A stretch of 64,000 nucleotides of DNA from Patescibacteria group bacterium (GTDB taxonomy: Bacteria; Patescibacteriota; Minisyncoccia; Phycocordibacterales; UBA918), in the NCBI GenBank assembly GCA_038061715.1, contig JBBTYP010000003.1, forward strand, positions 12,034 through 76,033, given 5' to 3'. This document shows, piece by piece, positions 5,752-20,902 of this stretch. The first letter of the stretch is position 1, and each line of letters opens with the position of its first letter. The translations under genes were made by a program, and so were the position numbers. Under the pieces are notes generated by a model that was not told the origin of the DNA, ran no database searches, and was given only the letters and a program-made list of their open reading frames with translations.

Positions 5752-6108
5752 TTACTCTTTTGCCACAAATCCAGCGTACAAGGCTACAATTGCAACCAGG
5801 AGATGCAGGATGTTGTCTGCCCCATTAGTGTGGATGAGTCCGAGCACATCACCACCCATCGCAAAGCCGAGGATTGTCACAAGTGCGTACACCACACCGA
5901 ACACTTTGAAGAAAAGTTTCGCGTGAGCAAGCGAACATGCCGCCCAAATGGCAATCAGACCAGTCGCTAGGTGGATAATATTGTGCAAGGCATCGACCTC
6001 AAAGATACCGAGCAAGTGTCCATCGGTAGTTACTCCAGGCACAAACCCGAGTACTCCAATGAGCACAAACACGATTCCGAATAATTTAGCTAATTTCTGA
6101 ACGTTCAT
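5752..6108 (-). CDS. DUF4383-like small membrane protein
   Basis: 118 aa, 4 TM helices; FEVDALHNIIHLATG motif resembles DUF4383. Confidence 0.5.
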   Translation of the reverse strand: MNVQKLAKLFGIVFVLIGVLGFVPGVTTDGHLLGIFEVDALHNIIHLATGLIAIWAACSLAHAKLFFKVFGVVYALVTILGFAMGGDVLGLIHTNGADNILHLLVAIVALYAGFVAKE

Positions 6109-6260
6109 ACATTAATCTCTTAAATGATAAACCCTTCGCTTCTATATAAATTGTAGCAGTCCTGTTCTACTTGACTAGAGGGTTTAAGGACTATCTCGAC
6201 AAACCATCAAAAAACCATTAGTATGTCCCGCACGTGTCCTCGTGACACATATTATAGCAT

Positions 6261-6333
6261 GGCGGCTATAGTACAACGGTTAGTGCATCGGTTTGTGGTA
6301 CCGATAATTCGGGTTCGATTCCCGGTAGCCGCC
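6261..6333 (+). tRNA. tRNA-His (GTG) with genome-encoded G-1
   Basis: Cloverleaf folds with 8-bp acceptor (G-1:C73), D-stem GTAC/GTGC, anticodon stem TCGGT/ACCGA, loop TTGTGGT, T-arm TCGGG-TTCGATT-CCCGG; no CCA encoded. Confidence 0.85.
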
Positions 6334-6339
6334 CTCGTA

Positions 6340-6367
6340 GTAAGAATCCCCTCACGGGGATTCTTAC
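6340..6367. terminator. 12-bp perfect hairpin between tRNA-His and convergent minus-strand gene
   Basis: gtaagaatcccc-tcac-ggggattcttac; weak T-run, so terminator function is uncertain. Confidence 0.45.
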
Positions 6368-6379
6368 GTTCGTTGTCAT

Positions 6380-6853
6380 TTAAGACTCAAAATCGTTAAG
6401 TATTTTTAGGAAGCTTTGTTGTGTGGCTTTAGGAATTTGTGGATGGTTGAGCAATTCAATCTTTCCCTTGCGTTTAATGATTTCTTTTACCTCTCCGAAG
6501 TAAAACCCCTGAACAGTTGCCAGAAAAAGATAGGAAGGATTCCAGCTTTGACTCATGCGTTTTACGATACTGAGAACTTCACTATTTTTAAGTGTTTTTC
6601 GATATTTTACTTCGATCAGATGGACAACCTTTGTCTTGTTATTGATGACAGCGAAATCTGGTGCTGTTCGAAGAGCTTCCACCATCTCATCATTCTCGCC
6701 CTGCCCCCTACCTACCAACTCAGGAATTATCTTCTCATAGCCAAATTCCAGAACAGTAAACTGTCCAGTCGAACGAAGCATTTGAGCGAACACTGTCTCA
6801 GCAATTTTTCCTTTAACTAAATTCCTCGCAAAAGATACTTCGTTATTTTTCAT
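6380..6853 (-). CDS. Hypothetical protein with PD-(D/E)xK nuclease-fold-like motifs (YraN/Hjc-like), immediately downstream of the type IIG RM gene
   Basis: 157 aa; GKIAETVFAQML...PDFAV...HLIEVKYRK arrangement (E...D...E-x-K) reminiscent of restriction-endonuclease-like fold. Confidence 0.35.
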   Translation of the reverse strand: MKNNEVSFARNLVKGKIAETVFAQMLRSTGQFTVLEFGYEKIIPELVGRGQGENDEMVEALRTAPDFAVINNKTKVVHLIEVKYRKTLKNSEVLSIVKRMSQSWNPSYLFLATVQGFYFGEVKEIIKRKGKIELLNHPQIPKATQQSFLKILNDFES

Positions 6854-6872
6854 AGTATTTATTTATACTTTA

Positions 6873-9281
6873 TTACTTAAGAAAACCTAAGTCGAATACT
6901 TGCGGTCTTATCTTCTCAGACAACGACTTATACGCTAGCTCAAAATCTTCAAACGATGCTTCTGGTAAACTCGCAGTCTCATTACGTTTTTTAAGTGCAT
7001 TTCGAATCTGATACCATCCTACATCTGGACGATTGAGCTTAAGGGCTTCTCGCACAGTATAGGGGTCAGTGTGCTCAAAATAAGCAGACCAAAGTTTCCG
7101 ACCCTCCTCAAGTACCACTTTGGATTCTACTGACAAATTTTTATCTTTAAGATACTTAACCATAAAATCACTCTCGAAGCGCTCTGATGTTCCCACTTCA
7201 CTTTCAGTGAAAGGAATAAAGTGATTCACTATGCTCCATTTTTTTCCGTTCCATTCCAAATCATTTGCACTTGCAGTAAGGTTACTACCATTAAATAGCA
7301 TCCAAATTAAACAGTCATTTTTAAACTCTTCACTCAAATCTTCTGTCGGTTGCAAAAACTGGTCTCTGTCATTTTGCCAAGTTGGCTTAATGATGCGTCT
7401 AACGGTAAACATTACAGCCGCCTTCCACAAGTCTGTTGGTGTAACAAAAATCGTACCAGCACTTCCAAAACCAGAAGAATATATAGATGTTGTTTTGGAA
7501 TGTTGCACATCACTACCTTGGAATACTAAACATGCAATGGCATCGTTAGCCCACTTAGTACCGCGCAAATCCTTTGTGACAGTTGCTGGTGATACAGCAT
7601 TTTTAAGGGGTATAACTTCTAAATCATTTGCCTTCGGTCGAACTATCCAATTGCCCAATAAACTTTCCTTGGGCGCATTGTAAAAAATCTTCTTCCCAAT
7701 TGGTCGAGCGTCATTATCTAAGACTTCAGTAGAAATTTCTTCAAACTGACTTATTTGACCATCTCCATGACTAGTACGCCAAATAAGGAAACCAATCGGG
7801 AACACACCTTTAATCCCGTCGAAAGATTTACTAGGAACAATGAAGCCACCCATATAATCTGCATCCCACTGTTGGCGAAAATCTTCAAAATTTGGAGAAT
7901 TTACATATTTAAGTTTACTGAACATTGCTAATGTCGCATTTGGTAGTTCTTTAGCAAACCGCACCATAAACTGCACAAAAAGCTCGCGAGCTGCGTAACC
8001 TTGCTCATCCATCAATTCTGCAACTTTTGTTTTAGAAACATTTTTCTTTGACTCTGAACGTTCATTATCTGAAATGTTTTCTGCATTCATTGCTTCGGCA
8101 TATGGAGGATTTATCAGTACTAAAATTTTCTTACCACTTTTAATAGCTCGACGAAGTGACTCCGGCAGCTTATTTGTTAGAGTGTAATCAATTTCTCCTG
8201 AATCAGAAATATCATCATTTAGATAATCATACTGAAAACGTTCAGCTGCGACACATGTCTTAGTAGCCTTCATAACATCTATATCAGCTTGATCGAGCGT
8301 ACTCATATAGATATTACGATGGTTACTATGCTTTACCTCGAGGTTTCCTACCCCGCAACACATATCCCATACAATGTATTCATCTTGCCATCCCTCCCCA
8401 AGAGTCTCGGTGAGTTTATTGTACGCAGCATCTACAACATGGAGCGGGGTGTAATAAGCACCCTTAAAGCTACGCTCATCGAGAGGAATAAGACTATCTC
8501 GTCTCTCTAGAAGATAAGTACGGTACTGCTCTTTTGGTGGCTTGTGATAAATAGCCCAAAAGCGTCGGTATCCTTCTTTGTTACTCAATTCGTATAACTT
8601 TCCATTGAGCGAGAAGACCGGCATTCCATCCTTATGAAGAAGCTCAGCAGGCATATCCTTGATTGAGGAAACCGTACCGTCATGCATTATGTCTGCAAAA
8701 AACAAAAGAGCGTAGTCTTCTTCCTGAACCCCAGCCAGCTCACGACCAATCATTTCAACCCAACGATCAAACACTTGTTTTAGATTGCTTGGAGTAATCT
8801 GAGTTCGGACAATCTCTCCTTCCTGAATAGCATTTTTAACAGCATCAATGAATTCCTGTTCGTGTGTCTTTATATTAAATGACACCATATAGGTACCTAT
8901 GTGCGCTGATACAGCTGCAAGTGCCTCTGGAGTTACATCACTAGCTGACTTACCCCATTTAATATCTTTCCGCTCCAAGACAGGTAAAGCGTCGATAGTC
9001 TTCATGATTGCTGCCTTATTCGTATCAATAACAGCTAAAAAAGGTGGCAGCTCTTCTCCATGATTTAGCCACTCTTTTGCGTAGTGCAAAAGTTGAGTAA
9101 ACATTGAAAAGCTACTGCAGGCACTACCAGCTTTTGCTTCAAACCATATTTCCTTAGTTTGAATATCAATTAAGCCCTTTTGATAGGCTTTTAGTCCCAG
9201 CGCTTTAATATAAAAATCCTTAACGTCCTCTTCACTACTGGCATTCTGAAGCTTTTCGTATAAAGTCATACTGAAAAGCAT
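6873..9281 (-). CDS. Fused type IIG/IIL restriction endonuclease plus N6-adenine methyltransferase (MmeI-like)
   Basis: 802 aa; N-terminal D-x9-E-x-K (LIDIQTKEIWFEAKAG) as in MmeI nuclease; methyltransferase motif I VWDMCCGVGNLE, GAYYTP, motif IV LVLINPPYAEA; C-terminal ~300 aa putative TRD. Confidence 0.75.
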   Translation of the reverse strand: MLFSMTLYEKLQNASSEEDVKDFYIKALGLKAYQKGLIDIQTKEIWFEAKAGSACSSFSMFTQLLHYAKEWLNHGEELPPFLAVIDTNKAAIMKTIDALPVLERKDIKWGKSASDVTPEALAAVSAHIGTYMVSFNIKTHEQEFIDAVKNAIQEGEIVRTQITPSNLKQVFDRWVEMIGRELAGVQEEDYALLFFADIMHDGTVSSIKDMPAELLHKDGMPVFSLNGKLYELSNKEGYRRFWAIYHKPPKEQYRTYLLERRDSLIPLDERSFKGAYYTPLHVVDAAYNKLTETLGEGWQDEYIVWDMCCGVGNLEVKHSNHRNIYMSTLDQADIDVMKATKTCVAAERFQYDYLNDDISDSGEIDYTLTNKLPESLRRAIKSGKKILVLINPPYAEAMNAENISDNERSESKKNVSKTKVAELMDEQGYAARELFVQFMVRFAKELPNATLAMFSKLKYVNSPNFEDFRQQWDADYMGGFIVPSKSFDGIKGVFPIGFLIWRTSHGDGQISQFEEISTEVLDNDARPIGKKIFYNAPKESLLGNWIVRPKANDLEVIPLKNAVSPATVTKDLRGTKWANDAIACLVFQGSDVQHSKTTSIYSSGFGSAGTIFVTPTDLWKAAVMFTVRRIIKPTWQNDRDQFLQPTEDLSEEFKNDCLIWMLFNGSNLTASANDLEWNGKKWSIVNHFIPFTESEVGTSERFESDFMVKYLKDKNLSVESKVVLEEGRKLWSAYFEHTDPYTVREALKLNRPDVGWYQIRNALKKRNETASLPEASFEDFELAYKSLSEKIRPQVFDLGFLK

Positions 9282-9312
9282 AGCATAAACTAGAAATGCT
9301 GGTTATTTTAAG

Positions 9313-9768
9313 TTAGATAGCAGCTGACTCAAGACGGGCTTTGAATAAGCTTATGATTCCACTTTTCTCTAATTTATAATTCTTGCCGTTGAAAGCTATT
9401 GAAGTCCCCTCCTCTTTGGCTAAATAAACTAAAATTGGTACATATCTTACTGGTCCATCTTTACCGAAAAAAATTGCAGCTATTATCCTTAAGCCCCCTG
9501 ATTTATCGGATTTTGGTTTTGTAGTTACTTGTCGAAACTTACACACCTGCACTCTCCCGCCAGTCTCATCCACTTCTTCAAGTAAAACAGTTTTTGAGGT
9601 TGGCACATGGAATCTAGGGCTATTTCTTAATTCCCAAAACTTACCCACCAAAAATTTATGATGTGCTTTTACGTCGAGCTTAAGACTCTTTATCTTTTTT
9701 AAACGTTTTTCATCCAGCTTCAGGAACGGTCCTTCTGCAAATTCCATAAATTTAAGCAGCAAGCGCAA
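9313..9768 (-). CDS. Hypothetical protein, putative toxin partner (RelE/ParE-superfamily-like C-terminus), overlaps upstream gene by 17 nt
   Basis: 151 aa; GGLRIIAAIFFGKDGPVRYVPILVYLAK resembles RelE/HigB-type core; translational coupling with Panacea-like gene. Confidence 0.3.
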   Translation of the reverse strand: MRLLLKFMEFAEGPFLKLDEKRLKKIKSLKLDVKAHHKFLVGKFWELRNSPRFHVPTSKTVLLEEVDETGGRVQVCKFRQVTTKPKSDKSGGLRIIAAIFFGKDGPVRYVPILVYLAKEEGTSIAFNGKNYKLEKSGIISLFKARLESAAI

Positions 9769-10276
9769 ACAAACCTGTTTTCTGCAGTTTATTCAGAGAA
9801 ACCTCTTCGGGCTCCTCAGCAACATCCTCTTCATTAGAACGATATTGTGCGTTCTCAAAATCAACAAGGTGATGGTAATCAGCCATCAAATAAACTGGAT
9901 CCTGGTGAGCAAGGTGTACGATTTGATTAACATTCAATTCTGAATAGCGTAAACATGTATTTTCAATTGATTGAATTTTCTTTGCATCCAAAAACTTTAG
10001 CTCCATTTCTCCAGCACCTATAAAATTTCCATCTGTAATGGTGAGAAGATTCTCAGAAACTAACTCCTCGATTGCCTTTTGAGCAATTTTGTTTATTGGG
10101 GTTGGACCGAAGGTATTTTTAATATATGAAACACTAGTGAGTCTTTCATTAAATTTCTCAAAGTAATCAGCTTCACTGAAAAAGCACAATTTCCAAAGTT
10201 TTGTTTCTTTCAACATCCTTGGATGATTTGCTGCTATATACCAAATTAACTCTTTAAATTCTTCTTTCTTGCTCAT
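9752..10276 (-). CDS. Panacea-domain (DUF4065/SocA-like) putative antitoxin
   Basis: 174 aa; KLWKLCFFSEADYFEKFNERLTSVSYIKNTFGPTP matches KLqKLlYfa...GPv core of DUF4065. Confidence 0.45.
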   Translation of the reverse strand: MSKKEEFKELIWYIAANHPRMLKETKLWKLCFFSEADYFEKFNERLTSVSYIKNTFGPTPINKIAQKAIEELVSENLLTITDGNFIGAGEMELKFLDAKKIQSIENTCLRYSELNVNQIVHLAHQDPVYLMADYHHLVDFENAQYRSNEEDVAEEPEEVSLNKLQKTGLFALAA

Positions 10277-10452
10277 AGTTTTATTATACGCTAAATACTT
10301 AATAAGTTTTCAGCTTCTCCTGTTGACCCAACAGTACCATATAATTCATATTTGTCTAAGAAAAGCTTGGTATGTAGAGAGTTGGGTCATTTCTGTGCTC
10401 AAACATAGTTCTAACTTCCTCTGCACCGTCGTCCAACCTGGTGGTATGTTAT

Positions 10453-10491
10453 AAAAATACGGCCCCGTTCTCACAGGGCCGTTTTAGTTTA
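10453..10491. terminator. Bidirectional intrinsic terminator downstream of ParB-like gene
   Basis: aaaaat-acggccc-cgttctcaca-gggccgt-tttagttt. Confidence 0.6.
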
Positions 10492-10506
10492 AGATCAGGT
10501 TCCGAA

Positions 10507-11649
10507 TTACCTGGCGGCTCGTATGATACGAGCCGAGCGAGCAAGAATGGAAGCTATCCGCTCAAGATCGTCAGCGACAACTGCACCGTGTTGGATCGTA
10601 AGTTGTTTCAGATCACCGGTTATATTTTCGAGACTGAACAACGCTGTCACTCGTTGGGCTCGTTCGTCCAGGGTTAAGATCAAGCTTTTGCCCTGATCCC
10701 AGGAATCAGAAGGTTTCTTCTGCCTTGAAATACCTGAGGCTCGACGATGGTGACCAGCCCGGGCCATGAGTTTTTGAACTCCCAGATTACCTTTCTTGTA
10801 ATCAATAAATGCTTGTACTTGCTCTTCATCAGGGAGATCAGCGACTTGTTTGATGATCGAAAACGGAATTGATGGATTATCGGCAACATGTTCAAGAGCA
10901 TGTTGACACAATCGTTCGCCAGCAATTTTTCGATTCGATAACCACACCGAATTGTTTTGCCCCAGACTCTCGGACACCTGCGCCTGTGTAAAACGGACGC
11001 CAGTATCTGGACAGGGTTCAAGCAGCCGTCTTGCCAGATCGATTTCTTCCCAAGGAGTATGTCCTTCTCGATTGAAATTGGCCACTGCCGATGTGAGCAG
11101 AGCCTCGTTGCGACCCTTGTCCTTAGACGTCTGCACTGTCGCCCGGAAAGGAACGCCAGCGATCTTACAGGCTCGAAGCCGTCGTTCGCCATCTCGCAGC
11201 TCATACTTCCAATCAAGATCGGGAGTTTCAACAACCAAACCGGGTTGAACCTGCCCCCGATGTCTGATCGAATCTGCCAAGGCATTGATACGCTCCTGAT
11301 CAAAATGTTTCCGCGGCTGATCTGGCAGTGGTGCGATTTGATCAACGGGGATCTCCAGCACTCGATCACCAAGAGTGATGTGCTGAAGCGGCGTCTCCAC
11401 CTCCTCTATAACGACACCTCCATGGAATTCACATAAACCAGTTTCATAATCTAACTGACCTTTGCTCCGATCATTTTCAGGGAGCAATAAACACCTTCGA
11501 CACAAACGCCATTTTGATTTGCATTTGCTGCGGCAGCAACCGTCCTGGTTTTTAGAGACAATGCTTGTTAGTTGACGACAAATATCCAAAGTCGCCGGTA
11601 CATGTGTAAACACGCACTTATGTGTCTCAATAACTCTCTGTTCAGACAT
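10507..11649 (-). CDS. Stand-alone ParB-like nuclease-domain (ParB/Srx) protein with Cys-rich N-terminal region; gene is GC-rich relative to flanks
   Basis: 380 aa; IPVDQIAPLPDQPRKHFDQERINALADSIRHRGQVQPGLVV...LRDGERRLRACKIAG is the ParB N-terminal domain signature (GERRxRA); N-terminal ~90 aa has many Cys (CCRSKCKSKWRLCRRC). Confidence 0.7.
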   Translation of the reverse strand: MSEQRVIETHKCVFTHVPATLDICRQLTSIVSKNQDGCCRSKCKSKWRLCRRCLLLPENDRSKGQLDYETGLCEFHGGVVIEEVETPLQHITLGDRVLEIPVDQIAPLPDQPRKHFDQERINALADSIRHRGQVQPGLVVETPDLDWKYELRDGERRLRACKIAGVPFRATVQTSKDKGRNEALLTSAVANFNREGHTPWEEIDLARRLLEPCPDTGVRFTQAQVSESLGQNNSVWLSNRKIAGERLCQHALEHVADNPSIPFSIIKQVADLPDEEQVQAFIDYKKGNLGVQKLMARAGHHRRASGISRQKKPSDSWDQGKSLILTLDERAQRVTALFSLENITGDLKQLTIQHGAVVADDLERIASILARSARIIRAAR

Positions 11650-11809
11650 GTCAGCTCCTTTCGATTTGCTATTCCAGAGATACTTATACTCCCATCAATA
11701 TAGCGTGTCAACGTAACAGTAAACTAGTACTTAATTATTGCTTTAGCGCCAGTGGTAATGTTTGTTATCCAACCATACACTTCTGACAACCTCGTTGTAT
11801 ACTTTCACT

Positions 11810-14925: not shown

Positions 14926-15687
14926 TTATTCTGCAATACGCTCAGCAGCTTCCTCAAAAGCTTGAGGAACGGGGGCGATGAAGCGTTCGCTTTGACCGTT
15001 CGGGAGTGTTAATTCTAGCTGGTGGGCATGGAGCGCCATCCGCGACAACCCTAAATTGTTAGATTTTTCTATGACATGGGTGGCATACAGTTCATCTTGT
15101 ACAATTGGTCGGTCAATAGCACGTAAGTGCACTCGGAGCTGGTGGGTTCTCCCTGTTTTAGGAATCAATTTCAGGTACGAAAATGCCTCGCCTTCGTATT
15201 CACCCATGCCAATCCGTTCAATGTCAGTAATAGCTTCTCGCAACATGCCCTTGGCGCCCTTCATGGCGGAGCGCAAACGGTGATCCTTGGTACTGCGACC
15301 AATCGGACGATTAATTGTTCCCCAACGATCGTGAATCCGACCGTAAACAAAGGCTCTATATTCTTTATAGACATTCCTGTCTTTGAATTGCTGCTTTAGA
15401 AAAGTGTAGGCCGCTTGGTGTTTAGCCAAAATAAGCACGCCTGAAGTCTCACGATCGAGTCGGTGTACGATCCCCGAGCGGTCTAGAATTTCTCCCTTTA
15501 CTGAATAACCCGGTTCACCAACTCCAGCTGCTGCTGGCTCGCGACACAAAAACCACTCCACTACAGTGGGTGTATTTTCTGTCTTTCCGTCCCCATGCAC
15601 CATCCAGCCTTCGGGCTTATTGATAACCAGGACGTCGTTGTCTTCATATAAAATAGCTGGCTCTTTCATGATTGCCAGTATACGCAT
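14926..15687 (-). CDS. RluA-family pseudouridine synthase
   Basis: HRLDRETSGVLILAK catalytic-Asp motif of RluA/RluD family. Confidence 0.8.
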   Translation of the reverse strand: MRILAIMKEPAILYEDNDVLVINKPEGWMVHGDGKTENTPTVVEWFLCREPAAAGVGEPGYSVKGEILDRSGIVHRLDRETSGVLILAKHQAAYTFLKQQFKDRNVYKEYRAFVYGRIHDRWGTINRPIGRSTKDHRLRSAMKGAKGMLREAITDIERIGMGEYEGEAFSYLKLIPKTGRTHQLRVHLRAIDRPIVQDELYATHVIEKSNNLGLSRMALHAHQLELTLPNGQSERFIAPVPQAFEEAAERIAE

Positions 15688-15705
15688 TATTTTGTATTTG
15701 TCAGG

Positions 15706-15978
15706 TTAATGTCTTACCGAAAATTCAGAGTGAGTCCCGGACACACTACACCAATCAATCCCCACGCTCTCTACGTGAGCCAATGATGAGCCTTCGTTTA
15801 GATATTCCACAAACTCTTTTAAAACATCAGGCAGACCTTGGGCCAAGACGAACACCGTTCCGTCAGTATTATTTTTGACGTACCCCACTAGAGCCAGGTT
15901 GGTGGCCGCCTCTTGCACATAAGCTCGATAAGCTACTCCTTGAACCTTCCCTATAACTACCGCCTGTAATTCAATCAT
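15706..15978 (-). CDS. acyP: Acylphosphatase
   Basis: 90 aa; VIGKVQGVAYRAYV...GYVKNNTDGTV matches acylphosphatase signatures. Confidence 0.8.
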   Translation of the reverse strand: MIELQAVVIGKVQGVAYRAYVQEAATNLALVGYVKNNTDGTVFVLAQGLPDVLKEFVEYLNEGSSLAHVESVGIDWCSVSGTHSEFSVRH

Positions 15979-16330
15979 ATGAAGGTTAGTATAACCCTCG
16001 ACGAAATTTAATACAGAGTTCGGCCTTGCATTTTGCTTGAAACCGAACTATAAAAGATAAGGAGCCACCAGGGAGTACCAAAATGCAATACAATCCTCAT
16101 CTAGAGGTTATGTATCCTAGCCGCAAGGCTAAACGGGCAGAGCGGCGGCAGTTTCTCAAACAGCCTCCCCACCCCAGTCCACAATCCGATCGGCCTTGCA
16201 CACTACCAAACATTTCTCGCTCTTCTCGCTAAGAACTCGATCTTTTACGGCCGGTCCCTCCAGGATCGGCCGTCGCTATTGAATTATTTTTAAAAACCAG
16301 TACTATATTGCCACGCAAATACATTTATTT

Positions 16331-16403
16331 GCGCGATTAGCTCAGTTGGTAGAGCAGCGCATTTACACTGCGAAGGTCGGGAGTTCGAGCCTCTCATCGC
16401 GCA
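16331..16403 (+). tRNA. tRNA-Val (TAC)
   Basis: Acceptor GCGCGAT/ATCGCGC, D-arm GCTC-AGTTGGTA-GAGC, anticodon loop TTTACAC, T-arm GGGAG-TTCGAGC-CTCTC; one G-A mismatch at 27-43. Confidence 0.8.
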
Positions 16404-16410
16404 CTTCTAG

Positions 16411-16446
16411 AAAACAGTCGCGGGCCTTAGCCCGCGACTGTTTTCG
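16411..16446. terminator. Intrinsic terminator after tRNA-Val
   Basis: aaaacagtcgcgggc-ctta-gcccgcgactgtttt. Confidence 0.7.
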
Positions 16447-16479
16447 TTTTGTAACTTTTTTTGGTATGGTTATCCCACT

Positions 16480-16551
16480 GCTTCCATAGTTCAATGGATA
16501 GAACAGGAGACTTCTAAGCTCTTGATGTAGGTTCGATTCCTACTGGAAGCA
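16480..16551 (+). tRNA. tRNA-Arg (TCT)
   Basis: Acceptor GCTTCCA/TGGAAGC, D-arm GTTC-AATGGATA-GAAC, anticodon loop CTTCTAA, T-arm GTAGG-TTCGATT-CCTAC. Confidence 0.8.
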
Positions 16552-16604
16552 CAGTCTAGCGAGACCTACTGAGAGGCTACAAGGCCTCGTAAACAGCGAT
16601 ATGT

Positions 16605-16652
16605 CTACAAAACAAAACCGAACGCAGATTTGCGTTCGGTTTTGTTTTGTAG
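16605..16652. terminator. 22-bp perfect inverted repeat hairpin between convergent tRNA cluster and minus-strand cassette
   Basis: ctacaaaacaaaaccgaacgca-gattt-tgcgttcggttttgttttgtag. Confidence 0.55.
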
Positions 16653-16739
16653 ATGTCAGTCTATTGGTAAGTCTGAATAAAGTCCCAAACATCTTTGTTC
16701 ATCCAACCATGACGCAACCCCTCTAGAGAGGAGGGTTTG

Positions 16740-17513
16740 TTACCAAAGAATCCTTACAATTTCTCCCAGTAACACATCCATATCTTGAGAAAAATTTACT
16801 TGTGTTTTTGTTGGCAAAACCTCCTTCTTTTGAATTGTTGTGTGAAGGTGACCATCAGCTATTTTCCGTGAGGAATTTTGAAGGTGATTAAATGTTTCCT
16901 TAATACTTTTTGCAGTTTTGAAATTGTTTGCTACTTTAGTAAAAGTCTGATACCCAAATATCGGAGCAACATGGTCTAACACGGTTCGTACCAGAAGTAT
17001 CGTGGAAATGTAATTCTTGTTTGCATAGTTAAAATTAATTTCTTCGCAAATTCGAACTAAGCGACTCAAATCGAAATCGTTACTTTTTACTACCTTAAGT
17101 TGGTTAATACGCTCTGGATCAATATAAATAGAGTTGTGATCTGGTGTTTGTTTTTGGGTGAGTGACTTAGCTGCTTCTGGTCTAGCTAATTTTGCGGCAT
17201 CACAATCAGAAAGCGCTAACTCAATTTCAATTAATCGGAGCCTGTCCGTTGGGATCATCCACGTGTCCTTCCGTACCAATCGTACTCGGGTGTCTTTCTT
17301 TAAAGTTGCACGAACAAAATCACTACGGATATTACCCAGTCCAGCAGAGGCGTATGCAAATTTCAAATCTTTGAGTGCAGCGTTACCACCACCGTACTTC
17401 GAAAAAAAATACAAAAAGCAAAGAATGCGTTTAGCTCGAGTATCGACATACTCGAGTGCGCATTTTGTAAACTCTGCCAAATCGTAACTATCTTCCATAA
17501 AGCATGTTCTCAA
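16740..17513 (-). CDS. Hypothetical protein, possible HEPN-like C-terminal domain (Rx4H motif RTVLDH); last gene of 4-gene cassette
   Basis: 257 aa; no recognisable family; ...ISTILLVRTVLDHVAPIFG... fits HEPN Rx4-6H; overlaps upstream gene by 26 nt. Confidence 0.3.
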   Translation of the reverse strand: MRTCFMEDSYDLAEFTKCALEYVDTRAKRILCFLYFFSKYGGGNAALKDLKFAYASAGLGNIRSDFVRATLKKDTRVRLVRKDTWMIPTDRLRLIEIELALSDCDAAKLARPEAAKSLTQKQTPDHNSIYIDPERINQLKVVKSNDFDLSRLVRICEEINFNYANKNYISTILLVRTVLDHVAPIFGYQTFTKVANNFKTAKSIKETFNHLQNSSRKIADGHLHTTIQKKEVLPTKTQVNFSQDMDVLLGEIVRILW

Positions 17514-17964
17514 AGTATTTTATTCCCTGCCTGTTTAAACGATATGGGGTTGGCAGACCATTTTTCCTTACTTTTGCACTTTCAAGGTAGGATCGAAGTT
17601 CCTTGAGCTTAGTCGAAGCGTTGGATGATTTAACTTTTATGCCCAGCTCAGAGGTGATGTGCTCTATATTGCCACTAGTTAGCCATATGTTGTTGAAGTA
17701 TTTATGCGAAATGTATAAACACATTAAGACCTTGGCCTCCATACTTTTAGCATCCAACACCTTCTGTTGCAGTAACTCGCTCTCTTCACAGTCGTTCACT
17801 CTGTTTGCAATTGCCAGAGTCATGTCTTGTTCATCCCGGTTTTCTGTGTCGTCTTTATTTATTGCTGGTGTTGTAGAAGAAAGTCCTCCCTCGAGAAGAC
17901 TTACTCGTTGTTCAAGGTCTTCAAGTCGTTGAAGAAAATCTGCTGGGGTAGTCATAACTTTCAC
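17488..17964 (-). CDS. Hypothetical protein (N-terminal coiled coil, C-terminal winged-helix-like region)
   Basis: 158 aa; translationally coupled within cassette. Confidence 0.3.
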   Translation of the reverse strand: MKVMTTPADFLQRLEDLEQRVSLLEGGLSSTTPAINKDDTENRDEQDMTLAIANRVNDCEESELLQQKVLDAKSMEAKVLMCLYISHKYFNNIWLTSGNIEHITSELGIKVKSSNASTKLKELRSYLESAKVRKNGLPTPYRLNRQGIKYFENMLYGR

Positions 17965-17966
17965 AA

Positions 17967-18533
17967 TTACCCAAACAACGCGACGATTTCGTCACGAATC
18001 TTATCAATACCTCCGGGCGCAAGGGAGAACACTGGTTTTTTTCCTTTACCCACACCTTTAGCCTGAATACCCTTAGCTTCTTTTAGATTTCGGCCAAGAT
18101 TGGAATCCCGGATACCCCATTCATCAGCTGCAACAGTAAATACCGTAATGGGTACTTCTTTTATATCAAGTCCAAATTTATATCCGGCAATTAACGCGTA
18201 GGCGAGATTACGTTGTTGGTCAGCAACTCCTCTGCCGACGGGTTTTATCGCGACATGAAGTTCGTCACCCTTCATTTCGTACAACTCATTGACCTGTTCT
18301 ACTGAGATTCCTAGCTGCGTTGCTAAGCGTCCCGAATCAAGAGCGGAACCTGGTAACGACTCCACTTTTGACAGACCTCCTACAGCAACACCACTGCTCG
18401 ATGTCGAGCTTTGAGCTTTAAGGAGATGTTCAAGCACGACTTCAAAAGCCTTTTCCTTTAACTCGGGTGAAGCGACTCCAGCGGCGTTCTGCGCTGCAGT
18501 AATTGCTTCTTCTAGATATTTGCGATCATCCAT
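17967..18533 (-). CDS. Hypothetical protein
   Basis: 188 aa; 2-nt gap to downstream gene; no recognisable motifs. Confidence 0.3.
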   Translation of the reverse strand: MDDRKYLEEAITAAQNAAGVASPELKEKAFEVVLEHLLKAQSSTSSSGVAVGGLSKVESLPGSALDSGRLATQLGISVEQVNELYEMKGDELHVAIKPVGRGVADQQRNLAYALIAGYKFGLDIKEVPITVFTVAADEWGIRDSNLGRNLKEAKGIQAKGVGKGKKPVFSLAPGGIDKIRDEIVALFG

Positions 18534-18544
18534 ATTTTTAGATC

Positions 18545-18991
18545 TTATTTATTAAGTAATACTTCAAAAAAATCCTCGCCCGATTGAGTAAGATCGTAGG
18601 TATTTTTACCTTTTTGTCTGACTAATCCGTCCTTGATGGCACGACTAAGGTACACCGGAGCATATGCTCCGTGGAACTTACCTTCCTTCCAACCCTGCTG
18701 AATATCACTAACCTGCACGTCAGTTTTAATAAGGATTTTTTCGTTATAGCCTACGATTGCCGCTACACGCTCCTGACCGTTTTCTAATGAGTTATTTCTG
18801 GCTAATTCAGGCAGTGTGATTTTTTTCTGCGTCTGCCGTATTGTAGGGGTTGGAGACAAAGATTGTTCGCTCCCAGACGTGAGTGCGTCAATCTTTACAT
18901 GCAGTGCTTGTAAAGAGGCTTTTATTTCCTTAAGTGTTTGATTGATATTCTCCATACTGTTTTGTAATACTAGGTTTATAGGGTCCGACAT
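18545..18991 (-). CDS. Hypothetical protein (N-terminal coiled coil), first gene of cassette
   Basis: 148 aa; preceded by 458-bp non-coding region. Confidence 0.3.
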   Translation of the reverse strand: MSDPINLVLQNSMENINQTLKEIKASLQALHVKIDALTSGSEQSLSPTPTIRQTQKKITLPELARNNSLENGQERVAAIVGYNEKILIKTDVQVSDIQQGWKEGKFHGAYAPVYLSRAIKDGLVRQKGKNTYDLTQSGEDFFEVLLNK

Positions 18992-19450
18992 CGTGGATAT
19001 CTGTTCGATATATTCCTATTATATTCTTTTGTTTATGGTTGTAAAGTGCTACAAATTTTACTTACGATGTGGAAGGAGTGGATAACTTCGGACATAACAG
19101 AATTAAGCTCGATAATAACTTTAAAAATAAGGGTTTTTAATACTAGTTGTCTGTTCGTATTGTACCGCTTACTCCCCACTTCGCAAACAACTTATCTAGC
19201 TAAGGTACTGACTAATAGCCCCGTTTAGCCTATTATTGACGACACAATACCTAACCAGAGAGTAATCTCTAGCGTGGTTTGAAGAATTCTTTCGCCAACG
19301 CGAACTGGTAATTGGTCGTTAGACGTCAGATTTGTAACATTTCGTTTAAATTGACACTACCGAGAGGCCTTAATTGGTACAGCGAAAAGTCGCCAAGAAA
19401 CCCTTGTGGAGCTTGATGGCACAAATTCCGATACTGAGAGGGAGCACAAC

Positions 19451-19852
19451 TTACTCCGATATTAATGTGGTGGCATCTAGCGCAGTTTCCAAATCCGTAG
19501 AACTAGCAGTCACTTCGGTTTCGCTAACCTCTACTGGCGCATAATTTTTATTTAAGGAATTGAGCTTATCTTGACGCTGTTTAATAATCTCGAGCACTTG
19601 ATTGACCAAGGTTTCTCGGTACACGACCTCTGCTGTATCATCAGCCGCCACCGAGACATCGATGGCTTGATTTTTAAAGTAAATATAAACACTTATAAAA
19701 GTAGCGAAAATAAATAATCCTAGAGAAACCACTAACCCGATTACCCACTCGCGTTGCGGGTGCATTAGCTGTGGATCACGAAGCGAAACTCTCTTTTTAG
19801 ATAGTTTCTTGAGAACATTCTTAATGTGCAGCCTATTTTTCATAATTAGCAA
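19451..19852 (-). CDS. Membrane-anchored hypothetical protein in pilMNO operon (PilP-position)
   Basis: 133 aa; single N-terminal TM; overlaps pilO by 20 nt. Confidence 0.4.
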   Translation of the reverse strand: MLIMKNRLHIKNVLKKLSKKRVSLRDPQLMHPQREWVIGLVVSLGLFIFATFISVYIYFKNQAIDVSVAADDTAEVVYRETLVNQVLEIIKQRQDKLNSLNKNYAPVEVSETEVTASSTDLETALDATTLISE

Positions 19853-20360
19853 TAAACACTCTAATCGTCACCTTGGCTTCCCAATTATTTTCTGAACGAT
19901 CTGTCATCTGCAATGAAGTTATCTCCGAAACGTAAGGGAGGTTTTCGAGAATAGTAACGAATCGATCGACATCACTTTGCGTACCAGAAAGTGTGAACTG
20001 GGCATTGACCCATTTATCTTTAGTTTTTTTGTCACTTCCTTCCTCAAGAGCGTCGGTCTTTAGCGTAATTCCGTTTTGTGGAGCCAAGGCTTCAACCTGA
20101 TTAAGGAAAGTGATGCTTTCACTCACTTGGGGTAAAAAGTAGTTATTTAATTGTTCGCGATCTGATTTTGAATCTTCGGAAATCTTTTGCAGATGATGGT
20201 AGGTTTTCTCAAGTTCGTTGCCAATTTTGATGGCGGCTAGTTGTGTTTTGAGGGTTTCCTCTTTGTCACTTATCATTTTGTAGCTAAAGCCAGACACTCC
20301 TACAGTAGTAAGGAGACAGACTGAAGCGATCAAAAAATTTCTAAGGGTACTACGGCTCAT
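19833..20360 (-). CDS. pilO: Type IV pilus assembly protein PilO-like
   Basis: 175 aa; N-terminal TM plus coiled coil; position after pilN; overlaps neighbours by 4 nt. Confidence 0.55.
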   Translation of the reverse strand: MSRSTLRNFLIASVCLLTTVGVSGFSYKMISDKEETLKTQLAAIKIGNELEKTYHHLQKISEDSKSDREQLNNYFLPQVSESITFLNQVEALAPQNGITLKTDALEEGSDKKTKDKWVNAQFTLSGTQSDVDRFVTILENLPYVSEITSLQMTDRSENNWEAKVTIRVFIANYEK

Positions 20361-20902
20361 AGATTTTTTTCTTTAGCCATTGTGATGCTGAGATCAAATG
20401 GTATATCGCGATCTTTGGCTAAATTAGAAATTGGTAAATCTACCGTTTCGATCCTTTCATCATCGAGCATACGAGTGCGAAAAGCCGCAAGCGTACGCCT
20501 GTCTTCTGCTGTACCCGCTACTTTTACTTCTTTGATACCCGTTTCATCCCGTCGAAGAGAAATCTGTGTAATGCGTAGACTGTTTGATTCAAAACCACGA
20601 AACAGCGAAACGTACTCGGTCATTGACGGATGTGCAAATCGATCAGATAAGGCAACCGCGGTCTGGCTGGCTCGTTCAAGCTCCTTGGCTACGTTTTCGA
20701 AGCTGGCGTTTTTCTCGTCCGCTGTTTCGGCTGAGGCTGTGTATGCTTTTACCTGAAGATTGATGAGCACGTACGATGGTATTAAAATAACGATACCTAG
20801 TAGCAATACAAAAGACCAGAGGAAGAACCAGACTGTCACCGAACGAAGCCAGTACTCATGGACTAAATGCTTTTTTGCCTCAAAAGGAATTAAGTTAATC
20901 AT
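20357..20902 (-). CDS. pilN: Type IV pilus assembly protein PilN
   Basis: MINLIPFEAKK... (INLLP-type start), single TM, fimbrial assembly family architecture. Confidence 0.65.
   Translation of the reverse strand: MINLIPFEAKKHLVHEYWLRSVTVWFFLWSFVLLLGIVILIPSYVLINLQVKAYTASAETADEKNASFENVAKELERASQTAVALSDRFAHPSMTEYVSLFRGFESNSLRITQISLRRDETGIKEVKVAGTAEDRRTLAAFRTRMLDDERIETVDLPISNLAKDRDIPFDLSITMAKEKNL

Follow-up and report, generated by a model that had tools for sequence, protein, structure and literature searches.

A four-gene cassette inserted beside tRNA-Arg in a groundwater Patescibacteria genome, a candidate toxin/anti-phage-type module with a predicted HEPN-fold effector

A cassette of four minus-strand genes forms an insertion of ~2.8 kb beside tRNA-Arg(tct) in a groundwater Patescibacteria genome. 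On balance we consider it a conflict module of the abortive-infection/toxin-antitoxin type that was acquired horizontally, and in which the protein encoded by the last gene, ORF4, would be an RNase effector with a HEPN fold. The original prediction for this part of the window (the whole stretch of 64,000 nucleotides that was analysed) was of a candidate novel defence or phage-related module, adjacent to tRNA genes and with a HEPN-like member. It is supported by the insertion, by the rarity of the family and by the restriction-modification, Gabija and phage-contig contexts in which the family occurs, from which we infer a role in defence. The genes of the cassette, in order of transcription, are as follows.

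18545-18991, minus strand: ORF1, 148 aa
17967-18533, minus strand: ORF2, 188 aa
17488-17955, minus strand: ORF3, 155 aa from ATG (maximal frame 158 aa, from GTG at 17964)
16740-17498, minus strand: ORF4, 252 aa from ATG (maximal frame 257 aa, from TTG at 17513)

All four frames (148, 188, 158 and 257 aa in their maximal forms) lie where they were first reported. Homologues of matching length were found for each (415 for ORF4, 42 for ORF3, 49 cluster representatives for ORF2 and 19 for ORF1), so they are genes rather than chance open reading frames. Public gene calls and alignments of homologue N-termini favour the ATG starts of ORF3 (17955) and ORF4 (17498). The spacings first proposed (an 11-nt gap, a 2-nt gap and a 26-nt overlap) hold for the maximal frames but not with these ATG starts; the homologue-supported starts leave 11 nt between ORF1 and ORF2 and again between ORF2 and ORF3, and make ORF3 and ORF4 overlap by 11 nt. 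Searches of all four proteins against Pfam, NCBIfam, PADLOC and PHROGs gave nothing above noise, in keeping with the claim that none of them carries housekeeping motifs. No component HMM of the known PADLOC defence systems (AbiV, AbiJ, AbiU, Wadjet and others) was matched, the sole PADLOC match of the cassette proteins being that of ORF3 to a JetB/MukE-like protein (E 0.003, 15 bits). The GC content of the cassette (0.41-0.44) falls just short of the window mean, and composition is therefore uninformative on its origin.

The cassette is flanked by pil genes, tRNAs and an acylphosphatase gene, and the features on its borders are these.

16331-16404, plus strand: tRNA-Val(tac)
16480-16552, plus strand: tRNA-Arg(tct), 3' end towards the cassette
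16553-19328: inserted segment, ~2.8 kb, limits approximate
16604-16653: perfect hairpin with 23-bp stem and 4-nt loop (arms 16604-16626 and 16631-16653), between the ORF4 stop and tRNA-Arg
19018-19045, minus strand: promoter-like site TTTACA-16-TATAAT (11/12 consensus), ~27 nt upstream of the ORF1 start

Relatives share an arrangement of pilMNO, tRNA-Arg(tct), tRNA-Val and acylphosphatase-rluA-rplS from which the cassette is missing. In three of them (L129, L109 and L102) tRNA-Arg(tct), tRNA-Val, acylphosphatase, rluA and rplS come after the pil block, and none of 13 related pil loci contains the cassette. As the same genes stand in the same order without it, the cassette is an insertion of ~2.8 kb, and the position of tRNA-Arg(tct) directly after the pil block in relatives marks the insertion site. 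One limit of the inserted segment is the 3' end of tRNA-Arg; the other is at 19329, where the similarity to the closest relative, L099, ends. In other Patescibacteria the same module is found elsewhere, after dnaG-rpoD in one locus (L006) and after dnaX in another (L008). Absence from the syntenic site in related genomes, together with presence at different sites in different genomes, indicates an insertion and not a core locus, as expected of accessory genes. Universal core-like conservation, which would have told against such a module, was not found, presence at the syntenic site being variable. Neither an integrase nor a clear att repeat that would explain the insertion was found, and looking for an att-like copy of the end of tRNA-Arg gave one marginal inverted match (16/18 nt) and nothing else. 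If the defence reading is right, these would be accessory immunity genes gained at a tRNA hotspot in a reduced Patescibacterium genome.

Because pilMNO stands immediately upstream of the cassette, tRNA genes lie beside it and ORF3 has its weak JetB/MukE-like match (E 0.003), the four genes might instead encode a lineage-specific housekeeping or nucleoid-associated complex of ScpB/MukE/JetB-like winged-helix proteins, tied to the pilus genes or to tRNA metabolism. Synteny and distribution largely refute this explanation and make it very improbable. A housekeeping or pilus-linked function was itself rejected on synteny.

Both tRNA genes are on the plus strand and so converge on the minus-strand cassette, as had been described. 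A perfect hairpin does separate them from the cassette, but its arms are of 23 nt rather than giving the 22-bp stem first reported; it probably serves as a terminator for both directions of transcription, at the right end of the inserted segment. The non-coding stretch before the cassette is also present, at 459 nt (18992-19450) rather than 458 bp, and ~120 nt of it (19329-19449) are conserved with the closest relative and are thus native flank. The promoter-like site lies inside the inserted segment. Rfam detected the two tRNAs and nothing else over 15500-20500. The upstream non-coding region has no inverted repeat or operator and its RNA stability is not unusual (z -1.28), so it bears no sign of an RNA antitoxin.

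A structure model of ORF4 (pLDDT 89) has an N-terminal winged helix (residues 1-100, nt 17199-17498), a disordered linker (residues 103-120) and an alpha-helical bundle, the HEPN-like all-alpha C-terminal domain of ~125 aa (residues 122-252, nt 16743-17135). The bundle bears out the alpha-helical C-terminal region first described, whereas the N-terminal winged helix had been missed. From the model, the C-terminal domain is predicted to have the fold of HEPN RNase toxins, making ORF4 the candidate effector. Across homologues this domain is always C-terminal, behind varied N-termini. Foldseek searches of ORF4 against the PDB returned winged-helix matches only (best E 0.34) and no HEPN, a PDB sequence-profile search with the ORF4 family returned nothing, and no curated HEPN family in Pfam, NCBIfam or PADLOC was recovered for ORF4 of the window. 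Pfam searches of 100 ORF4 homologues at E up to 10 yielded no consistent family, HEPN included, and those of ten longer proteins with the C-terminal domain in fusion yielded no annotatable N-terminal domain; an ATPase domain was not seen in any ORF4 homologue scanned. The bundle could be HEPN-like without being an RNase, acting as a ligand, metal or nucleic-acid sensor or as another enzyme, with the cassette as a set of winged-helix transcription regulators of other genes; we regard this as quite unlikely. For the RNase reading, two pairs of residues in the C-terminal domain come into question as the active site.

16971-16988, minus strand: RTVLDH motif, R171-x4-H176 (numbering of the 252-aa protein)
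16842-16868, minus strand: R211-KIADGHL-H219, within the invariant SSRKIADxxLH block

Six residues (R171, H176, E153, R211, D215 and H219) do not vary among 100 homologues. RTVLDH had been proposed as an HEPN-type Rx4H motif; it is present, and R171 and H176 are among the invariant residues, but it does not occupy the canonical HEPN position. It lies at the end of the helix 163-181, which is broken by Pro-Pro in most homologues, and thus on the helix preceding the canonical motif position instead of at the end of canonical helix 3. Furthermore, the residue after its R is T or A rather than the usual N, D or H. By topology, it is R211 and H219, at the end of the third long helix (197-218) and the start of a conserved loop, that appear to be in the canonical HEPN position. 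Their spacing is x7, and the protein of the window also has H217 (x5). A comparison of lengths with 7ae2 (R102/H107 in a protein of 141 aa, 101 residues aligned) likewise puts the canonical site near R211-H219. By analogy with AbiV, R171/H176 are plausible as a catalytic pair in a non-canonical position.

Three of the proteins had been described as having coiled-coil N-termini and winged-helix C-termini. This is the case for ORF3, which has an N-terminal helix (4-23), a disordered stretch (26-37), a PadR/MarR/HrcA-like winged helix (72-140) and a C-terminal helix, while for ORF1 and ORF2 the winged helix is graded probable. ORF2 has a helical N-terminus, a low-complexity linker and a C-terminal region of ~85 aa, which probably forms a winged helix of the same type as that of ORF3, judging from the hhalign comparison of the two families (E 5.4e-4, 81 collinear columns). 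ORF1 begins with an amphipathic helix of coiled-coil-like character and ends in a winged-helix-like region; its residues 113-143 gave weak matches to HTH_45, Mrr_N and Sso10a, and its profile matches the wing and C-terminal helix of ORF3 (E 1.5e-3). It is related to genes of 137-186 aa ('family B') that occupy the same position in other loci (hhalign probability 92%, E 8e-7). PDB sequence-profile searches with the ORF1 and ORF2 families gave nothing meaningful. ORF2 is present in only some modules (L006 and L013), and ORF1 and ORF2 are variable, interchangeable accessory genes that probably encode related winged-helix proteins. Paralogy of the ORF4 N-terminal winged helix with ORF1-3 was considered and is unsupported (hhalign E 0.15 or worse).

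The conserved core of the module is the pair ORF3 and ORF4. A gene of the ORF3 family lies directly upstream of, or overlaps, that for ORF4 in 16/16 non-redundant full-length homologues, and the pair has the adjacent, co-transcribed small partner co-occurring with the toxin that characterizes type II toxin-antitoxin systems. ORF3 is predicted to be a regulator or antitoxin of ORF4. A purely selfish addiction module of type II would have ORF4 as toxin, ORF3 as DNA-binding antitoxin and autorepressor and ORF1 and ORF2 as extra autoregulators, acting by post-segregational killing with no dedicated anti-phage role. The 11-nt overlap of ORF3 and ORF4, their strict co-occurrence, the winged-helix nature of the upstream partner (as in many antitoxins) and a patchy distribution shaped by horizontal transfer, with multiple copies in two genomes (L025 and L030), are all compatible with it. 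However, 40% of the C-terminal-domain genes (33/82, of other architectures) have no adjacent operonic partner upstream, which argues against an obligate antitoxin. Three or four genes are atypical for type II systems, and the recurrent embedding between hsdM and hsdS, together with adjacency to Gabija, points to defence islands. An addiction module without a role in defence is unlikely. The addiction-module and defence readings can both hold.

Homologues of the ORF4 C-terminal domain occur in 249/185,579 species genomes from > 20 phyla, including Bathyarchaeia, at about 50% identity. The family, conserved at about 50-60% identity between phyla, has at least 415 members, to which Pfam, NCBIfam, PADLOC and PHROGs are blind. 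Six IMG/VR contigs carry the domain, and genes for portal, capsid, terminase and integrase occur among these contigs. In three loci (L011, L040 and L042) hsdM and hsdS enclose an ORF4-type gene. HsdS and HsdM recur most often among the neighbours; the most frequent families comprise HsdS (5), type I/IIG MTases (6), AAA_15/AAA_21, ResIII and UvrD, and single loci have as neighbours Gabija (Marinimicrobium), DACNV with PIN (L058) and SIR2-STAND with PDDEXK (L010). Loci embedded in restriction-modification genes number about 5-6 of ~75 by raw count, and most neighbourhoods consist of ordinary genes. As an unannotated, horizontally scattered family often found inside restriction-modification loci, it is most likely a new module of toxin/anti-phage type.

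In the conflict module that we favour, ORF4 would be the effector, its winged helix tethered by the flexible linker to the HEPN-fold domain. This domain may be a metal-independent endoribonuclease whose cutting of RNA would arrest the cell. ORF3, translationally coupled to ORF4, may bind ORF4 and/or operon DNA and silence the nuclease, and ORF1 and ORF2, as distantly related coiled-coil/winged-helix accessories, might join the complex as nucleic-acid-binding or sensing subunits. A trigger, for example phage DNA or loss of a partner, would then release the RNase. As a more tentative possibility, the cassette may encode an undescribed multi-subunit system in which two to three paralogous coiled-coil/winged-helix proteins and a winged-helix-HEPN-like effector form a nucleic-acid-sensing complex, the effector being either a new HEPN clade whose active site is a composite of two invariant R...H pairs or new chemistry on a HEPN scaffold, released by foreign DNA or by failure of restriction-modification. 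Were ORF4 an RNase effector, abortive-infection/toxin-antitoxin systems would gain a new HEPN clade whose catalytic geometry is unusual, as well as a new partner logic based on arrays of winged-helix proteins, and the unannotated gene that recurs in type I restriction-modification operons would be accounted for. Culturable Flavobacterium sp. NRK1 and Marinimicrobium agarilyticum DSM 16975 carry homologues, making the proposal testable.

HEPN genes within restriction-modification operons have been read as second-line suicide RNases (PMC3710099). The cassette gave no profile match to the HEPN toxins embedded in such operons (Abi2/AbiD/AbiF, ApeA, EC042_2821, pEK499_p136 and PrrC/RloC; Anantharaman et al. 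2013, PMC3710099). PrrC/RloC have an N-terminal ABC/Rad50-like ATPase on the HEPN domain, where ORF4 has a winged helix of 100 aa, and EC042_2821 has a REase domain that ORF4 lacks. ORF4 also differs from these toxins in having its Rx4H on the preceding helix and R-x7-H at the canonical site, and the cassette in having dedicated multi-gene winged-helix partners. In HEPN-MNT (HepT-MntA) and RnlA-RnlB systems the partner is a nucleotidyltransferase antitoxin or RnlB-like protein; both are absent here, where the partner is a winged-helix protein and two or three partner genes precede that for the putative toxin, the last of the series.

AbiV has its motif placed similarly to RTVLDH of ORF4 and is a precedent for non-canonical placement of R and H. 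However, the cassette lacks a PADLOC match to AbiV, and AbiV is countered by an RNA antitoxin (abiV2) whereas the partners here are winged-helix proteins. ORF4 further stands apart from AbiV and the AF0298-like HEPN-T families by the added winged helix at its N-terminus and by a large number of extra invariant residues.

Retron type IX (Retron-Kva2) needs a reverse transcriptase and ncRNA/msDNA, none of which was found in or near the cassette among the flanking genes or by Rfam, and no sequence similarity of the cassette to its proteins was detected. The winged-helix proteins are also built differently, with a coiled coil and PadR-like winged helix in the cassette versus HB1-HB2-HTH in the retron. 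The HEPN of type IX is a further precedent for non-canonical placement, having no canonical Rx4-6H and its R and H on different helices, and a separate winged-helix protein wraps the HEPN nuclease and caps its active site, keeping it silent until phage attack (bioRxiv 10.64898/2026.07.14.738597). We take this arrangement as a working model in which ORF3, perhaps together with ORF1 and ORF2, may control ORF4.

The cassette and the two tRNA genes beside it are laid out as follows.

16331-16404, plus strand, tRNA-Val(tac)
16480-16552, plus strand, tRNA-Arg(tct)
16740-17513, minus strand, ORF4 (maximal ORF; 252 aa from the ATG at 17498)
17488-17964, minus strand, ORF3 (maximal ORF; 155 aa from the ATG at 17955)
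17967-18533, minus strand, ORF2 (188 aa)
18545-18991, minus strand, ORF1 (148 aa)

The four ORFs lie exactly where they were originally predicted and, since both tRNA genes are on the plus strand, these converge on the cassette, also as predicted. The ATG starts of ORF3 and ORF4 match the N-termini of homologues and are used by public gene calls on identical contigs from Hainich groundwater metagenomes. With these starts, 11 nt separate ORF1 from ORF2 and ORF2 from ORF3, and ORF3 overlaps ORF4 by 11 nt, in place of the predicted 11-nt gap, 2-nt gap and 26-nt overlap. The perfect hairpin is present with arms of 23 nt (16604-16626 and 16631-16653) rather than 22 nt, and the long upstream non-coding region measures 459 nt rather than 458 nt. 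This stretch upstream of ORF1 contains a near-consensus promoter-like site (19045-19018) and gave no Rfam match, palindrome or unusual RNA fold.

All four are real, unannotated genes. Homologues of matching length were found for each: 19 proteins for ORF1, 49 cluster representatives among 1.84 billion for ORF2, 42 proteins for ORF3 and 415 (E of 1e-3 or better) for ORF4. These homologues carry neither Pfam domains nor informative names, and Pfam, PADLOC, PHROGs and NCBIfam gave only noise on the four cassette proteins.

Synteny reveals that the cassette was inserted. Of 37 loci encoding relatives of the neighbouring PilM, 13 had enough flank; all 13 keep the block ruvX, tRNA-binding gene, VTT gene, pilM, pilN, pilO and 130-aa gene, and none has cassette genes downstream of it. 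At three loci (L129, L109 and L102) tRNA-Arg(tct) comes straight after the last gene of the block, followed by tRNA-Val(tac), acylphosphatase, rluA, rplS and tRNA-Leu(gag), which is the window order minus the cassette. Nucleotide similarity to L099, the closest relative (PilM 88% identical), runs beyond the 133-aa gene up to window position 19329 and ends there; the inserted segment therefore spans roughly 16553-19328 (2.8 kb). It adjoins the 3' end of tRNA-Arg and, judged from its sequence, appears to bring its own promoter and terminator. No integrase or convincing att duplication was found at the insertion. A 16/18-nt inverted match between 16468-16486 (5' edge of tRNA-Arg(tct)) and approximately 19069-19086 (non-coding, upstream of ORF1) is of marginal significance, and its orientation differs from that expected of an att duplication.

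The tRNA cluster looks like a recurrent hotspot of variable cargo, because relatives hold other, unrelated genes between tRNA-Arg(tct) and tRNA-Val(tac) (L102:8858-11515 and L109:12992-14717). In the window these tRNA genes are adjacent. Elsewhere in the window, ribosomal protein L19 (14273-14869) carries a C-terminal extension of about 70 residues rich in Ala, Glu and Lys. Within positions 6000-11650, a stretch starting at tRNA-His (6262-6334) has a GC content of 0.37-0.42 versus about 0.46 elsewhere and may be a second accessory island, encoding the following.

6873-9281, minus strand, 802-aa protein with only a weak MTase_II PADLOC match
within 6000-11650, minus strand, 144-aa protein
9752-10276, minus strand, 174-aa protein with a weak precomputed SocA_Panacea match
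10507-11649, minus strand, ParB_N protein

The module travels as a unit. Other Patescibacteria carry the genes in this order at unrelated sites, after dnaG-rpoD (L006; 138, 187, 159 and 251 aa) and after dnaX and a GIY-YIG gene (L008; 131, 137, 161 and 239 aa). Pairwise comparison showed a conserved core of ORF3 (51-62% identity) and ORF4 (43-53%), with variable genes upstream of ORF3. According to an ORF3-family HMM, each full-length ORF4 homologue has a member of that family directly before it or overlapping it; these homologues come from 16 non-redundant loci (Patescibacteria, Verrucomicrobiota, Nitrospirota, Gammaproteobacteria and Poriferihabitaceae) and one IMG/VR contig. The accessory families are B (137-186 aa; related to ORF1, hhalign probability 92%, E 8e-7), C (113-115 aa), D (130-138 aa) and E (the ORF2 family). 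One gammaproteobacterial MAG (OZ257143.1) has the complete three-gene module twice, at sites far apart (L025 and L030).

The ORF4 model (100-sequence alignment, mean pLDDT 89) has a winged helix (1-100), a disordered linker (103-120) and an all-alpha domain with helices at 128-136, 145-159, 163-181, 186-192, 197-218 and 237-251. Named alongside this fold are Roquin, TT1696, AbiA, Csx1-Crn2, the sacsin HEPN domain, HepT, YutE, TTHA0636, ST0689 and the HEPN toxins 7ae2 and 8xdj. In profile-profile comparisons, the entire winged helix of ORF3 aligns to the last 85 residues of ORF2 (E 5.4e-4, 81 columns), and its wing and last helix to ORF1 (E 1.5e-3), which is suggestive, though not proof, that ORF1, ORF2 and ORF3 are distant paralogues.

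R171 and H176 of RTVLDH, originally proposed as an HEPN-type motif, are invariant in 100 homologues, but the motif ends helix 2 (counting the long helices of the model), in most homologues before a Pro-Pro, rather than occupying the canonical position. Canonical Rx4-6H is found where helix 3 ends; helix 2 carries a conserved acidic residue, and inserts occur between these two helices (PMC3710099). At the canonical helix-3 end of ORF4 is an invariant block, SSR211-KIAD-xxL-H219. Two precedents keep RTVLDH plausible as a catalytic pair. The functional motif of AbiV (91-RNHKSKH-97) is mid-sequence, between helices. In HEPN-T proteins of the AF0298 type, a different His, supplied by the helix 2-helix 3 region, takes this role (PMC3710099). 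RTVLDH is thus a candidate catalytic pair, and either R171...H176 or R211...H219 could perform the chemistry. Also invariant are R130, D143, E153, R211, D215, H219, E226, Q233, D241, E246 and R249; 13 invariant polar residues exceed the need of an HEPN site, which is the argument for a rival reading, that the domain has a non-RNase function.

A scan of 185,579 genomes (one per species) found 249 relatives of the C-terminal domain, typically 45-57% identical, in many Patescibacteria lineages, more than 15 other bacterial phyla, Bathyarchaeia and the cultured Flavobacterium sp. NRK1 and Marinimicrobium agarilyticum DSM 16975. This rarity, together with the synteny, largely excludes a housekeeping complex. 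The domain also occurs on six IMG/VR contigs, among which portal, major capsid, terminase and integrase genes were detected. It is always C-terminal; the N-terminal part before it measures roughly 45 to 525 residues and could not be annotated in any case. An operonic upstream gene is present for 49 of 82 such genes and absent for 33. L059:5832-8708 and L064:4620-5736 each have two of them close together on the same strand, directly adjacent in the latter. At L041:7647-8411 the gene appears split into ORFs of 202 and 50 aa, which could be a frameshift, pseudogene or assembly error.

Among 117 flanking proteins (raw counts), HsdS, type I/IIG methyltransferases and AAA_15/AAA_21 ATPases were commonest, followed by ResIII, UvrD and PD-(D/E)XK. 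One locus (L011) reads hsdM, DUF3800, two 115-aa coiled-coil/winged-helix genes, a winged-helix-plus-C-terminal-domain gene and hsdS; embedding is comparable at L040 (Bathyarchaeia) and L042. The L011 locus is of type I restriction-modification (L011:1762-7832), and a Fic protein is a further passenger among the several embedded within or beside its hsdM-hsdS interval. Other copies lie directly after a Gabija pair (AAA_15+OLD-TOPRIM, then UvrD; L078), after DACNV and PIN proteins (L058) or beside SIR2-STAND and PDDEXK_9 proteins (L010). Surroundings at many other loci are ordinary.

The most economical reading is that the cassette is a mobile conflict module. ORF4 would be the effector, its HEPN-fold C-terminal domain probably an RNase, controlled by its own winged helix and by the coupled coiled-coil/winged-helix ORF3, with ORF1 and ORF2 as exchangeable extra subunits. 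We infer the RNase activity of ORF4, its toxicity, its neutralisation and its trigger. A rival is a selfish toxin-antitoxin module and nothing more. The conflict-module reading fits two precedents: HEPN genes within restriction-modification operons, read as second-line suicide nucleases (PMC3710099), and retron type IX, in which a non-canonical HEPN nuclease stays silent in the wrap of a separate winged-helix protein and is released when a phage nuclease triggers it (bioRxiv 10.64898/2026.07.14.738597).

The family is testable, broadly distributed 'dark matter', and would surprise defence-system specialists only if a multi-winged-helix sensing complex or new chemistry proved true. HEPN-based Abi, toxin-antitoxin and restriction-linked effectors are a known kind; new here are an ORF4 family missed by every curated library tested, the unusual arrangement of its conserved residues and its arrays of winged-helix partners.
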